Source: a virus. From it: 64,000 nt of DNA. The notes below the pieces were generated by a model that was not told the origin of the DNA, searched no databases, and saw nothing but the letters and a program-made list of their open reading frames with translations. Positions 27,198-32,603 of this stretch are shown piece by piece (within the stretch, counting starts at the first letter, position 1; every line of letters starts with the position of its first letter). The position numbers and the translations under genes were made by a program. The stretch is from IMG/VR virus record IMGVR_UViG_3300024981_000252, one strand, 5' to 3'.

Positions 27198-27467
27198 ATG
27201 ACGTCCATCGTCGCACTGATCGTTATTGTCGCGAACGCGGCCACGGCGTTGCGGTTGCTGACGTACCAACGGGGGGAGGCCCGCTATCGGTGGTGGGCGA
27301 GTCTCGCCGCCTATGTGTTGATCGTCTGCACCGGAGGGGAGGCCCTTTCTGTCGCAGTCAACGGCACGCCCACTTCGATATGGCAGGCCGGCATGAGCGT
27401 CGTGCTGGCGTTTCTGGCCCACCGCGCCCGTGGCAACGTGGCACGCATCATCAGGGTGGCCCCATGA
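27198..27467 (+). CDS. Second holin/antiholin-like membrane protein
   Basis: Three TM segments; RLLTYQRGEARYR...ARGNVARI. Confidence 0.72.
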   Translation: MTSIVALIVIVANAATALRLLTYQRGEARYRWWASLAAYVLIVCTGGEALSVAVNGTPTSIWQAGMSVVLAFLAHRARGNVARIIRVAP

Positions 27468-27997
27468 GACCGATCGAATTCATCCGACGCGAGATCGACA
27501 AGGGGTTGTGCCTACTGCCTGACGCCATGGACTCGCGAGAGGCGGTGCTGATGCTCCTGGCGATCAGCGGGCAGGAGTCGAACTGGGAGCATCGCTGGCA
27601 GGTGGTCGACAAGAAGCAGCCAGGGCTCAAGGGGCCGGCGCGCAGTTTCTGGCAGGGAGAGAAGGGGGGCGGGATGGTGCACGGCGTGCGCACGCATCGC
27701 GCCTCCCGCGTGCTCGCTGCTGACCTGTACGCGCATTTCAGTGTGCCAGCGACCGACGAGGCGATCTGGATTGCCATCGAGACCAATGATGCACTGGCGG
27801 CCGCGCTGGCGCGCTTGCTGCTGTATACGGATCCCGCCCGACTGCCGGCGCTGGGTGACGAGGAGGACGCCTGGGAATACTACCTGCGCCTCTGGCTGCC
27901 CGGAGCGTGGACGAACGGCACGCTAGCCAAACGTGCCGAGTTGCGGCAGAAATGGGCGGGGTACTACGCCCAGGCCCTGTCCGAGGTGTCGCTATGA
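27464..27997 (+). CDS. Endolysin, lysozyme-like fold (177 aa)
   Basis: LLAISGQES...GPARSFWQGE catalytic-like pattern; follows the holins. Confidence 0.75.
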   Translation: MRPIEFIRREIDKGLCLLPDAMDSREAVLMLLAISGQESNWEHRWQVVDKKQPGLKGPARSFWQGEKGGGMVHGVRTHRASRVLAADLYAHFSVPATDEAIWIAIETNDALAAALARLLLYTDPARLPALGDEEDAWEYYLRLWLPGAWTNGTLAKRAELRQKWAGYYAQALSEVSL

Positions 27998-28374
27998 GCG
28001 CGCTATCTGCTGTTCTGCGGGGCGGGGAGGGCGGCCGTCTGTCGTTCTGGTGCCCAGGGTGCGGTGAGCCGCATGCGATCCAGGTGTGGGCCGGCCCGGG
28101 TCCGCGCTGGGGCTGGGATGGCAATGCCGAGCGCCCGACGTTCACGCCCAGCGTGCTGGTGACCACTGGACACCACGTCCAGGGGTATGCCGGCAGTGGA
28201 TGCTGGTGCGATTACAACCGCGAACATCCGCCCGAGCCCGGCGAGCGGGTGTTTACGTGCGGCGTCTGCCATTCGTTCGTACGAAACGGCCGGATCGAGT
28301 TTCTGAGCGACAGTACTCACGCTCTGGCCGGCCAGACGGTCGACCTGCCTCCGTGGCCGGAGGATCCGTCATGA
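27994..28374 (+). CDS. Cys/His-rich DUF6527-like protein (126 aa)
   Basis: FWCPGCGEPH...PTFTPSVL...CHSFVRNGRIEFLSDSTHALAG. Confidence 0.7.
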   Translation: MSALSAVLRGGEGGRLSFWCPGCGEPHAIQVWAGPGPRWGWDGNAERPTFTPSVLVTTGHHVQGYAGSGCWCDYNREHPPEPGERVFTCGVCHSFVRNGRIEFLSDSTHALAGQTVDLPPWPEDPS

Positions 28375-28889
28375 TGACGCCGACCAATCTGATCGTACCT
28401 TCGTGGCTGCGCTATGGGGCCGTGGCGGCGATTTCTGCCCTCGTGTCTGGTGCTGGAGCATGGCAGGTCCAGGAATGGCGCCTGGGGGCCAGAATCAGCG
28501 TCCAGGCCGCCGACATCGCGAAGGAACGCGAGGACCACGCAGTTGCTGCCCGCACGGCCGACGCAGATCAACGTTTAATCGAATTCAGCAGGATGGAGGT
28601 CAACGCCCATGTCACGTACCAAACCCAGCAGCGCCTGGACGCCGCAGCTGCTGCTCTGCGCGATCGCGAGTTCGCTATTGTCGGCCTGCGCAACGCCCTC
28701 GCCACCGCCGAGTCCCGTAGTCGTGCGACCAGCAGCGATCCCGCCCCCCCCACCGGTGCTGATGACCCCGCAACCCTACGAACAGTGGTCAGAGAGTGCG
28801 CAGCGGAATATTCAACGATGGTCGAAAATGCTGTCCTCGCCGGTGCCGCGGTGAGAGGCTTGCAAGAGTATACGGAGGCGATGCGCTGA
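28371..28889 (+). CDS. Inner-membrane spanin (Rz-like, 172 aa)
   Basis: N-terminal TM helix followed by a coiled coil. Confidence 0.75.
   Translation: MMTPTNLIVPSWLRYGAVAAISALVSGAGAWQVQEWRLGARISVQAADIAKEREDHAVAARTADADQRLIEFSRMEVNAHVTYQTQQRLDAAAAALRDREFAIVGLRNALATAESRSRATSSDPAPPTGADDPATLRTVVRECAAEYSTMVENAVLAGAAVRGLQEYTEAMR
28609..28854 (+). CDS. Outer-membrane spanin lipoprotein (Rz1-like), nested in Rz
   Basis: Lipobox LLSA-C; Pro-rich mature part; alternate frame fully inside the i-spanin gene. Confidence 0.8.
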   Translation: MSRTKPSSAWTPQLLLCAIASSLLSACATPSPPPSPVVVRPAAIPPPPPVLMTPQPYEQWSESAQRNIQRWSKMLSSPVPR

Positions 28890-28937: not shown

Positions 28938-30728
28938 CTATTGGAGAGGGCTTTCTTTGATTTTCTTAAGCAGGTTCAGAAATTCTATCGGAATGAGATC
29001 GACCGTATCGTGTAGGCCAATTAGTTTGTCTTCGTCGATTGGCTTGGGTCGAAAAAAAGCTTGACACTGTTCTTTGTATTCGTGGTCGTCAGTGTTGAGG
29101 AACCAATTCGGATACAGCACTTTTTTTCCATTGCAAAATTCAACTGATGTTCGTTCATCAGAAGCGGCGAGGTTGAGCTTCTCCCGCATGCTTTCCCACA
29201 TCTTATCGACAATACCCTGCAGCGACTCTTGGGCCTCGTCTCGCAACTCTGCCAGCCGTGTGGGGCGTGTCTTCACCGAAGGCACGGAAGGCGCCTTTCC
29301 TAAAAGGTAAAGATAGGCCCAAAGAAGTATCGGGTCATAGAGATAGTTCTCCATGCCGTCTCTTAGTAAATAATGAAAGCCATCTTCTGAATCGTGATCT
29401 CGTCCGTCCCGATCAAGAACTGCATGGAAGCGGCGATAGTGAGCCTTACGCAACCCACCCACAACGGTTTTCGTTGTCTCGCATCCGGCCCCATGCAAAA
29501 AAAGGATGGAAGGGGTGGGCGAAAGTGGGAGGGAGTACTTCTGAGCTCTAGATAAGCGTTCAGCAATGTTCTCGTATAGTTTCCGGTCGCTTCGACCCTC
29601 CAATAGGACGATCCTCATGTCGTCATCCACGGTAAGGAAGCCGCTGGTGAGCATCGCAATTGCGTCGCCCTTGTTCAATACTTTCTCGACCGGGGGCGAC
29701 TCTGGTGTGTGTGCAGGGGAGGCCATTACGAAGAGGGAGTCGCTTGGCGCGAGTGCGACAGTGGATGGGGAGTGGGTTGTCATTACAACCCGTATTCCAA
29801 GCTCTCCAATGAACCGTTGTTGGAGAACGTTAAGAAATGACCGCGTCAAAGACGGGTGGAGATGTGCGTCCGGTTCGTCGAGGATCAATAGGCGGCCGGG
29901 AACATCCCGTTCGGTAGAAACGTGCTCCCAAATGCTCATCGCGAATATAACTTTTTCCCCCGACGAGAAACGCTCGAAGGGAACTACAACGTTAGAGTGG
30001 ATGTGTCTAAGTTGGAGAACATAGTTTCCTTCGCGGCGCACAAAGCTATAAATTTTGACTGTAGGTGGAACTACCTCGTATGGAATGGCTGCTGCTTCTA
30101 AGACTCTGTTCAAGCTATGCCAAGGGGGTTCGCCTAGAAATTGCTCGGCTTGCAGCTCTGTCTCATGGAATCTGTGCATGCGAAAACGCTTGAGGTTCTC
30201 ATACAAAAAGTACATGAGCGGCAGGTTCTGCTTGCAAAATGTCGGTAGACAAGCCAAGACTGCAGCCGAGATGCCCTCGGGTAAGTCGTCCTCCGCGAGA
30301 TCGAAATAGGTGTCTAGGCTTATGCCATTTTGCTTGCAAAAGGCGTTGGCGAATTCCTCGAATTGAGCGCCCTGCCCATCATCTCCCCGAAGCTTAAGGT
30401 CGGCGAAAAGCATCGATAGTTGGTCGAGATCGCAAGAGGGGGCTATGACTGCCCCAGTCCAATCCGAAAGGAGATGCAAGGCGGATTGACTGTATTGACT
30501 CGGGTCGCCGCGAAACTCTATCCCAAGGCTTCGTGCATCATGATCGTTCTTGGCCGCTTGGATGCGTCCGCCTGCTTCTATTCGTACGGCGCTCGAACCG
30601 ATAGCGAAGGTCTCGAGAAGTTGGGTTTTTCCGGTGCCATTGGGGCCTGTTATCACCGTGAAAGGCGGTATGTCTTTCCACACGAATGGGGTGAGTGAGC
30701 GGTACTGGTCCGTGAGCCTTAATTCCAT
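28938..30728 (-). CDS. ABC-type ATPase fused to a TOPRIM-like nuclease domain (OLD/PARIS-like defence candidate, 596 aa)
   Basis: Walker A GPNGTGKT, signature FSSGEK, Walker B LILDEPDAHLHP, H-loop TTHSP; TOPRIM LLEGRSD and VLDRD; ~50% GC by eye; counter-oriented. Confidence 0.85.
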   Translation of the reverse strand: MELRLTDQYRSLTPFVWKDIPPFTVITGPNGTGKTQLLETFAIGSSAVRIEAGGRIQAAKNDHDARSLGIEFRGDPSQYSQSALHLLSDWTGAVIAPSCDLDQLSMLFADLKLRGDDGQGAQFEEFANAFCKQNGISLDTYFDLAEDDLPEGISAAVLACLPTFCKQNLPLMYFLYENLKRFRMHRFHETELQAEQFLGEPPWHSLNRVLEAAAIPYEVVPPTVKIYSFVRREGNYVLQLRHIHSNVVVPFERFSSGEKVIFAMSIWEHVSTERDVPGRLLILDEPDAHLHPSLTRSFLNVLQQRFIGELGIRVVMTTHSPSTVALAPSDSLFVMASPAHTPESPPVEKVLNKGDAIAMLTSGFLTVDDDMRIVLLEGRSDRKLYENIAERLSRAQKYSLPLSPTPSILFLHGAGCETTKTVVGGLRKAHYRRFHAVLDRDGRDHDSEDGFHYLLRDGMENYLYDPILLWAYLYLLGKAPSVPSVKTRPTRLAELRDEAQESLQGIVDKMWESMREKLNLAASDERTSVEFCNGKKVLYPNWFLNTDDHEYKEQCQAFFRPKPIDEDKLIGLHDTVDLIPIEFLNLLKKIKESPLQ

Positions 30729-31028: not shown

Positions 31029-31309
31029 AGCGTAGCTTTTTATTTTTGTCTAGGAAAATACTGGGAGAACACGCCGATGCATCATCGGCGTGTGACCCGC
31101 GGAGTCGGTGCCTGGTTTCGCTAGGGAATTTCTTGGGGAGGCGCGTCTTGCCTCGCTTTCCTGATGATCGTTCGTCGTTTCTTGCGGCACGTTTGGACCC
31201 AATTACACCTATCTAAATCCATCAACACTTACGCCGTTGGCGTAGGTTTTTGTCCTTGTTCTGGACAAGCTACGCTGTCAGTAATAGCATGCCGGCACAA
31301 AGTTACGCC
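31029..31309. other. attP region with arm-type repeats
   Basis: 10-bp repeats AAGCTACGCT(rc) 31029, CACTTACGCC 31226, AACCTACGCC(rc) 31239, AAGCTACGCT 31267, AAGTTACGCC 31300; AT tract; immediately upstream of int. Confidence 0.65.
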
Positions 31310-31322
31310 GACTTGGATCGAC

Positions 31323-32603
31323 ATGCAATTTGACGCGCGCGCAGCGAAGCTTTTGCAGCCAGGGCAACACATTACCATCGACGCTCACCCTGGGCTGCGA
31401 CTGAAGGCAACTGCTACAAAGCGGACCTGGATCTATCGGTACAAAAGTCCGGTCGACGAGCGCATGCGCCAGATCAAGCTGGGGCAGTGGCCAGCGATGT
31501 CGTGGCATGCTGCAGTAGCGCAGTGGGAAGTGCAGCGCGCGAGGCGCGACGCCGGTGGCGATCCGGCGCTGGAGAAGAGACAGGCGCGCCAGGCTGTCAA
31601 GCTGGCCGTGGTCGACAAAGTCGGCGCGCTGACGGTGCGGCGAGTCTGTGACCTCTACCTCGAGGGGCATATAAGCCGTCGGGCGGAGAAGGGGCGGGGC
31701 GAGGTGGCCAGGTTGTTCAATACCATGCTCGATGGCATTGAGAACATGCTGGCCGTCGACGTCACTCGTACGGTGGCGTTTGCCCACATCAAGAAATACG
31801 ACGAGTCACCGGTGATTGCGAGCAACCTGCGGCGCGAGCTCGGGGCGGCCTGGGACTATTGTTTGGACTCGGGAGATCTGCTCGAAGACACGCCCAACTG
31901 GTGGCGCTTGATTCTGCGAGGGAAGCTCAAATCCAAGGGTAGAGCCAAGCTGGGAGTCAAGGCGGGGAAAAAGAAACGCGTGCTCAGCCCGGAGGAGGCG
32001 GGCCAGGTTATCCGATGGCTCCCGAATTTCTCCAACAATGTCGACGATATGTTGACGCTATACCTGTGGACTGCTGTGCGGGGCGCCGAGATCGAGAAGA
32101 TCGAGGGGAGGGAGGTTCAGGAGGAGGCGGACGGCCTCTGGTGGACAATCCCCAAACACAAAACCAAGAACGTCAATCGAGAAGAAGCCGATGATCACCG
32201 CGTTCCTTTGGTGGGGCGGGCGGCCATCGTAGTGCGCCGGCGGAAGGAGGCCTACGGCGATGGTTATCTATTCCCCTCGGACAGCAAATTCGGCTATTTC
32301 CCGCAGAAATCGGCCTCGGGATCGGTCTACTACCACATGCCGTACTGTCGGACCATGCCCGAGAGGGAGCGGGCGCGTTTGCCGGTGGAGAACTGGGCGC
32401 CGCACGACCTGCGGCGAACGTCCAGGACATTCCTGGCGGCGCTCGGCTGCCCGCGCGACGTGGGGGAGGTCATCCTCGGGCACATGCTCGAGGGCGACGA
32501 AGGCACGTACAACCGCTATACGTTCGATAAGGAACGTCTTCATTGGCTCACGCACCTGTCTGACTATCTGGAACAACTGGCGGTTCATCGACCTTCCGCT
32601 TAG
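31323..32603 (+). CDS. int: Tyrosine integrase with N-terminal arm-binding (DUF4102-like) domain (426 aa)
   Basis: GLRL...TWIYRYKS...QIKLG arm domain; catalytic R (TAVRGAE), HDLRRT, LGH, YNRY. Confidence 0.95.
   Translation: MQFDARAAKLLQPGQHITIDAHPGLRLKATATKRTWIYRYKSPVDERMRQIKLGQWPAMSWHAAVAQWEVQRARRDAGGDPALEKRQARQAVKLAVVDKVGALTVRRVCDLYLEGHISRRAEKGRGEVARLFNTMLDGIENMLAVDVTRTVAFAHIKKYDESPVIASNLRRELGAAWDYCLDSGDLLEDTPNWWRLILRGKLKSKGRAKLGVKAGKKKRVLSPEEAGQVIRWLPNFSNNVDDMLTLYLWTAVRGAEIEKIEGREVQEEADGLWWTIPKHKTKNVNREEADDHRVPLVGRAAIVVRRRKEAYGDGYLFPSDSKFGYFPQKSASGSVYYHMPYCRTMPERERARLPVENWAPHDLRRTSRTFLAALGCPRDVGEVILGHMLEGDEGTYNRYTFDKERLHWLTHLSDYLEQLAVHRPSA

Follow-up and report, generated by a model that had tools for sequence, protein, structure and literature searches.

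The gene at positions 28938..30728 (- strand) of the window (the whole 64,000-nt stretch of DNA analysed) encodes a 596-aa protein, in which computational analysis shows that an ABC ATPase, intact, is joined to a two-metal TOPRIM domain of the AriB type. The gene is AriAB-like and is carried as a low-GC moron; computational evidence likewise shows that it was acquired horizontally and is the sole cargo of a variable slot of its phage. An anti-phage function in the general sense is very probable. By analogy with PARIS, the protein is, on balance, probably a prophage-borne single-chain PARIS-type abortive-infection protein of the tRNA-cutting kind. It works most like the single-chain 'merged' PARIS, an architecture that has already been described. 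The stand-alone ABC-ATPase/TOPRIM defence candidate proposed in the initial annotation is supported as a candidate, being intact, located in a variable cargo slot and devoid of a partner. That a prophage moron should encode a defence protein of the ATPase-TOPRIM type is unsurprising to specialists.

Gene and motif organization of the fused protein

The reading frame is uninterrupted and is oriented opposite to the flanking lysis genes and integrase. Its GC content is 0.514 (GC3 0.56) as compared to 0.638 ± 0.022 (minimum 0.571) for other 1791-bp windows of the phage. Both the counter-orientation and a GC of about 50%, estimated by eye in the initial annotation, are borne out. No sigma-70-like promoter was detected upstream of the gene on its own strand.

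The ABC ATPase region (residues 1-365; 29634..30728, - strand, as are all features of the gene) has a SMC/Rad50-like head. It carries the Walker A motif GPNGTGKT (residues 28-35 with K34; 30624..30647), the ABC signature FSSGE (254-258; 29955..29969), the Walker B and D-loop LLILDEPDAHLHP (280-292 with D284 and E285; 29853..29891) and the H-loop TTHSP (317-321 with H319; 29766..29780). The TOPRIM core (371-466; 29331..29618) includes LLEGRSD (375-381) and VLDRD (437-441), and is followed by a C-terminal helical domain (467-596; 28941..29330). The key residues of Walker A (G28, N30, G31, G33 and K34), signature, Walker B, D-loop and H-loop, along with E377, D381, D439, D441, R456 and E460, show no variation among 118 homologues with about 25-36% identity to the query, and the motifs are therefore not due to chance; D465-P466 of the TOPRIM core is invariant as well. 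The TOPRIM glutamate and DxD noticed earlier are thus confirmed. The ABC motifs, previously regarded as complete, are so for the Walker A, signature, Walker B, D-loop and H-loop, but not for the Q-loop, as no conserved glutamine was found at the expected place, where the family reads x-G/S-E-W.

A helical insert of about 230 aa between Walker A and the signature had also been described. The stretch comprises 218 residues, and the secondary structure of the model restricts the helical part to residues ~101-212 (about 110 residues; 30093..30428), the remainder being mostly beta strands of the ABC core. The insert is the most variable helical part of the protein (mean conservation 0.35, as compared to 0.74 in the ATPase core), and residues ~101-212 may serve as an oligomerisation or trigger surface. 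The spacing between Walker A and Walker B is 253 aa in the query and 234-257 aa in the core family, with 167-179 and 301-311 aa in the catalogued fused groups and 195-390 aa in two-gene AriA. The size of the insert is ordinary for this class; sensing through the insert, as put forward in the initial annotation, may occur but would not be distinctive.

Pfam analysis of the query gave AAA_21 and AAA_15 with 70.2 and 42.9 bits, respectively, both over the cut-off and also over the values used for the ATPase of merged PARIS (AAA_15 ≥32 bits or AAA_21 ≥27 bits; PMC9122126). By fold, the ATPase is nearest to Septu/retron PtuA (Z about 17; 17.6), followed by SMC heads, and AriA scores Z 13.3. The ATPase half is common to many defence systems and is not diagnostic for the protein. 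Gabija GajA, retron Eco8 OLD, AbiL, MADS MAD3-MAD4 and Septu PtuA all possess an AAA_15/21 ABC ATPase and hence cross-match, but these systems need partners (a UvrD helicase, a reverse transcriptase with its RNA, or a separate nuclease). Gabija was rejected as an identity, as no UvrD-like helicase GajB partner is present in the window or the lysogen and none is conserved in 49 family loci. Retron type I-B was rejected as well, no reverse transcriptase gene being present and the flanks consisting of the lysis cassette and attP/integrase.

Affiliation of the nuclease domain and of the lineage

The full-length Foldseek search was dominated by the ATPase, and the C-domain was therefore folded separately (pLDDT 94.6). 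In a fold search of 48,161 chains, AriB (8v46_D) was the top match with a Z of 10.9 (176 aligned residues, rmsd 3.5), as compared to 7.6, 6.8 and 5.3 for Bp OLD, Ts OLD and GajA, respectively; in Foldseek, two AriB chains were the only matches at E<0.001. HHalign gave a probability of 96-98% to AriB/AriAB profiles, confined for AriB to the catalytic core of roughly 100 residues, and of 1.4% to OLD. When the C-domains of the 118 homologues were searched, 112 matched AriAB, 109 AriB and 98 DUF4435 (at E<=0.1; best 3e-10), as against a single match to OLD-like_TOPRIM (E 0.03). The query C-domain alone matches the AriAB model but not DUF4435 or AriB. The relatives score 23.8-30.2 bits on DUF4435 (PF14491), around the merged-PARIS cut-off of 27, and the query alone gives no match. 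The DUF4435 region of the family appears to be homologous but divergent.

Residues E377, D381, D439, D441 and E460 parallel the metal-site residues E26, D30, D88, E90 and E122 of AriB (PMC10802264, PMC11464382), a correspondence that is based on motif order and profile alignment rather than on superposed coordinates. Like AriB, the query has E-x-x-x-D as its first acidic motif, as compared to E-x-x-x-E in 19/19 OLD sequences sampled. The PDB sequence search with the C-domain profile returned nothing relevant, and the sampled AriB also missed E. coli AriB; because these searches did not connect to E. coli AriB, a one-to-one residue mapping is not given, and counterparts of the tRNA-holding residues K60/K64, R28 and R236 could not be placed in the query. 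The predicted C-domain homodimer had a score of 0.13 and is not counted as evidence. Sequence and modelled structure together indicate a C-terminal domain of the AriB/DUF4435 type and not of the OLD type.

Phylogenetic analysis included a tree of 43 proteins, built from the concatenated ATPase core and TOPRIM. The trees were without AbiL, MAD3-4, HEC-04 and retron effectors, and the long-branched OLD_L173, AriB_L152 and AriB_L185 were dropped from the 43-protein tree. In the latter, the family formed its own clade (100/100), which was distinct from the clades of both PADLOC models and was separated from OLD (100/100) together with the DUF4435 proteins; branching at deeper levels lacked clear support, and the branch of the query is somewhat long. 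Of the two identities offered in the initial annotation, the OLD-like one fails on sequence, fold and tree, while the fused-PARIS-like one holds, in agreement with the top fold match, the DUF4435 matches, the five-acid pattern and the tree position. Of the checks proposed earlier, the profile comparison and the structure prediction, as applied to the C-domain, both led to AriB.

It is rather unlikely that the protein, while being anti-phage, carries a TOPRIM that nicks or degrades DNA like those of Gabija GajA, V. cholerae OLD and retron Eco8 OLD, gated by ATP levels or DNA structures. Such an activity would be consistent with the fused ATPase-TOPRIM architecture, which is that of class 1-3 OLD (PMC10568477), with the second and third ranks of OLD TOPRIMs by fold, and with a score of 75 bits for the retron ATPase-Toprim_I-B model on the whole protein, near the 84 bits of AriAB. 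The conserved position 549 (K in 65 and H in 43 of the 118 homologues) could also replace the catalytic lysine of OLD, its alignment with the OLD 'GKGRF' motif and with K562 of Bp OLD being loose. The E-x-x-x-D motif, the HHalign probability to OLD and the separation of the family from OLD in the trees argue against it, and support the AriB-type assignment.

The best PADLOC model for the query was AriAB PDLC02981, which matched with 84 bits in a single stretch over both domains (233-516). The family scores 72-116 bits on this model as compared to 364-700 bits for true members, and proteins from the other fused clade reach 69-74 bits on it. The second model, PDLC02982 (true members 212-634 bits), was not among the best 25 query matches. 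Thresholds of 80 or 20 bits have been used for the fused-AriAB HMM (Rousset 2022, PMC9122126); the 84 bits of the query would just exceed the former, provided that PDLC02981 is identical with the original AAA_15+DUF4435 HMM. The PADLOC search, also proposed earlier, therefore yields AriAB as the best match, but only with a low score and through one of the two models. By tree position and HMM scores, the query lies outside both clades represented by the PADLOC AriAB models.

Single-gene ariAB fusions have been described (PMC9122126), and the two 'merged' clades of fused ariAB are said to have one origin (PMC11464382). The present family was joined to a two-gene AriB group in two trees (94/87 and 92/87); this join was missing from the ATPase-only tree and was lost once the second fused clade was added. 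The data suggest a separate fusion event for the family, but a single fusion origin was not rejected by AU tests (p 0.41 and 0.14). The 'possibly new subtype' of the initial annotation has some support in that the lineage differs from the two catalogued fused models, but not as a demonstrated separate fusion. A tentative and less probable possibility is that the family represents a third PARIS lineage with a fusion of independent origin, closest to a two-gene AriA/AriB group and barely caught by current defence HMMs. Its tethered AriB-type nuclease would then be turned on by an oligomer rearrangement unlike the activation of PARIS or OLD, and might have a separate trigger and different tRNA targets.

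In some trees, the two-gene group nearest to the query family is a group of an ATPase plus an AriB-like protein from loci L154, L155 and L157 (genomes G077, G050 and G106). The ATPases of this group have no recognisable G-x-N-G-x-G-K-S/T Walker A in the retrieved ORFs, and the AriB of L154 and L155 gave no PADLOC model match at E 1e-12.

As in merged PARIS/AriAB, an AAA_15/AAA_21 ABC ATPase is followed by a DUF4435-type TOPRIM on one polypeptide, encoded by a loner gene on mobile elements; the low model scores, the separate clade and the Walker A-B spacing of 234-257 aa are different. Two-gene PARIS AriA + AriB (E. coli B185; PDB 8V46, 8UX9) shares the C-domain fold, the five-acid pattern and an ATPase with helical inserts, whereas the query is fused with a fixed 1:1 stoichiometry, and the fold of its ATPase resembles PtuA more than AriA. 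Class 1 OLD (P2 Old, T. scotoductus OLD 6P74, V. cholerae OLD) is also a single-gene prophage moron with an ATPase-TOPRIM fusion, and provides the best model for restraining and switching on a tethered TOPRIM; the query differs in having no OLD-like_TOPRIM (PF20469) match, in its E-x-x-x-D motif, in its separate branch and in its lower fold score to OLD. HEC-04, another single-gene ABC ATPase-TOPRIM, is a validated anti-phage protein that requires both active sites (Payne 2024, 10.1101/2024.01.29.577857). The HEC-04 profile was not among the reported PADLOC matches (the best 25 of the query and those of the 118 C-domains), and HEC-04 is set apart here provisionally.

Proposed mechanism, family and alternative functions

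PARIS is activated by triggers such as Ocr-like proteins, cleaves tRNA and leads to abortive infection. AriB is a two-metal tRNase, the dimer of which is active once released from AriA (PMC11464382). In P2 OLD, which is likewise an ATPase-TOPRIM fusion, the insert holds together an autoinhibited tetramer, and this dissociates into active dimers that cut tRNA (10.64898/2026.07.10.737580). The AriA6:AriB3 'release the toxin' mechanism is not applicable as such to the query, as its domains form one chain; since a tethered nuclease is not releasable like AriB, a rearrangement or splitting of the oligomer would be required. On the model of PARIS and P2 OLD, the lysogen would express the protein, and the ATPase heads and helical insert would assemble an autoinhibited oligomer. 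An infection signal, which may be aberrant DNA or a phage protein (for instance a DNA mimic), would alter the state of the ATPase, and the oligomer would rearrange or split so that an open active site is formed by a pair of TOPRIM domains. The paired TOPRIM sites would then cut host tRNA, leading to the arrest of translation and abortion of the competing phage. A literature search yielded no experimental work on this family or on a fused PARIS of any kind. PARIS acts by release of the nuclease from its sensor, which a fused protein cannot do; merged PARIS would therefore be switched on in another way, for which the present gene, being intact, without a partner and in a natural prophage slot, offers a clean test case with a single gene.

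Full-length relatives (24-36% identity) are present in Proteobacteria, Bacteroidota, Acidobacteria, Verrucomicrobia, Cyanobacteria and Actinobacteria, on about 20 viral contigs and on a few plasmids, and the C-domain profile retrieves 384 clusters (50% identity) at E<=1e-30. The family is consistently fused and is common on prophages. Split or stand-alone forms were considered and rejected, as the short ones checked are contig-edge or frameshift fragments (P0137 and P0132 begin at contig ends). The family is sizeable, but its DUF4435 scores do not exceed or only reach the cut-off, and its members carry no label other than 'AAA family ATPase'; defence censuses therefore probably undercount it.

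No recurring partner gene was found in 49 family loci. Integrases are the commonest neighbour (9/49 loci), and some copies lie beside restriction-modification, DISARM-like, Mokosh, TIR, STAND or TIR-STAND genes, these tallies being raw counts from a crude ORF caller without background control. Genes for SRAP (SOS-response peptidase) account for 5/80 neighbours of prophage family members (viral loci L089-L127); SRAP, integrases and D12 adenine methylases near family members probably reflect shared cargo spots and not partnership. The closest plasmid homologue (L224, Caballeronia plasmid pNK84, 267-11755) is placed between two large TIR-domain genes, the first of which encodes a TIR-nSTAND1-WD40 protein, and the region looks like a defence island.

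The frequency of integrases among the neighbours and the presence of the family on plasmids, along with the behaviour of PARIS as a toxin-antitoxin pair (PMC10802264), would also agree with a protein acting mainly on other mobile elements (plasmids, satellites), or with a self-contained prophage-stabilising toxin. Such a role is improbable, as a covalent fusion would not yield post-segregational killing via differential decay, and the tested relatives of the same architecture (PARIS, OLD, Gabija and HEC-04) are anti-phage. The departures of the query from the family (L254F in the signature, which reads LSSGE in the family, F384L, and T-D-D-H in place of the R-G-K/H motif of the C-terminal domain), together with its somewhat long branch, might indicate that this copy, although from a defence family, is decaying and inactive. 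This is very improbable, as the frame is full-length with all invariant residues retained, D547 and D548 occur in 19/118 and 16/118 homologues, respectively, H549 is retained, the protein is identical across five lysogen contigs and the full-length model of the 596-aa protein has a pLDDT of 88.8. A non-defence SMC/Rad50-like ATPase-nuclease of DNA repair or replication, as the resemblance of the ATPase fold to SMC/Rad50 heads and the housekeeping roles of some OLD homologues (10.64898/2026.07.10.737580) might suggest, is the least probable of all in view of the scores below cut-off for SMC_N (28.7 vs 40 bits) and RecF (23.9 vs 172), the lack of a long coiled coil, the patchy distribution over many phyla at about 30% identity without synteny, and the low-GC cargo that is swapped for other genes in a sister phage.

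Phage, integration site and cargo slot

The window covers a circular phage genome of 40,787 bp 1.57 times, bases 1-23213 being 100% identical to 40788-64000; features in the first 23 kb therefore occur twice. The phage has no tRNA genes, and a search of 50,697 cultured phages gave no match. Lysogen contigs assembled from metagenomes also code for the 596-aa protein, and sequence evidence indicates that the phage is temperate, with mutS of a Pigmentiphaga-like host as its integration site. The MutS of this host groups with Pigmentiphaga proteins, and the adjoining host genes are those of the bin 'Bordetella sp. SCN 67-23'.

The attP (31069..31093), mapped by comparing both prophage ends in the lysogen contigs with the window by identity, has an 8-bp core TGCATCAT (31078-31085) within a perfect 10-bp inverted repeat. 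Insertion takes place in the HTPMMQQ codons at the 5' end of the host mutS, the site already known from PMC5296598, and the phage provides replacement codons. As attP contributes CAC ACG CCG ATG ATG CA, mutS of the lysogen is in frame with a new upstream region (junctions at L001 7635-7651 and L006 4756-4772), and the attB rebuilt from the flanks is likewise in frame. A host-side PhdYeFM/PIN toxin-antitoxin pair (L002 6710-7390) lies ~240 bp beyond the prophage end, immediately upstream of the displaced mutS start.

The cargo slot is bordered on the left by the last lysis-cassette gene (28374..28889, + strand), which is Rz-like by position and features, has a nested Rz1-like ORF (28609-28854) and gave no Pfam match, and on the right by a tyrosine integrase of 426 aa (31323..32603, + strand). 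Between the Rz-like gene and attP no gene other than the 596-aa ORF is present, in agreement with the lysis-attP location without a partner that had been read earlier. A sister phage (L135) shares 81.6% identity with the window over positions 27417-28848, is divergent beyond 28848, and has an HTH + IrrE/M78 peptidase pair in place of the ATPase-TOPRIM gene. This divergence and the different cargo show that the slot is variable and that the ATPase-TOPRIM gene is a moron. The pair of the sister phage (L135 2121-3060) consists of an Xre-like HTH protein and an IrrE/M78 metallopeptidase with a 78-aa ORF downstream, and is possibly a regulator-toxin or defence-control module.

Within the lysis cassette, a putative endolysin of 176 aa (27467-27997, + strand) follows two holins; it is without a Pfam match and has relatives in other prophages with 42-85% identity. 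Between this gene and the Rz-like gene lies a 126-aa gene (window 28003-28374, + strand; L001 10355-10735), which matches Pfam BubE (PF20137) and displays Cys/His motifs.
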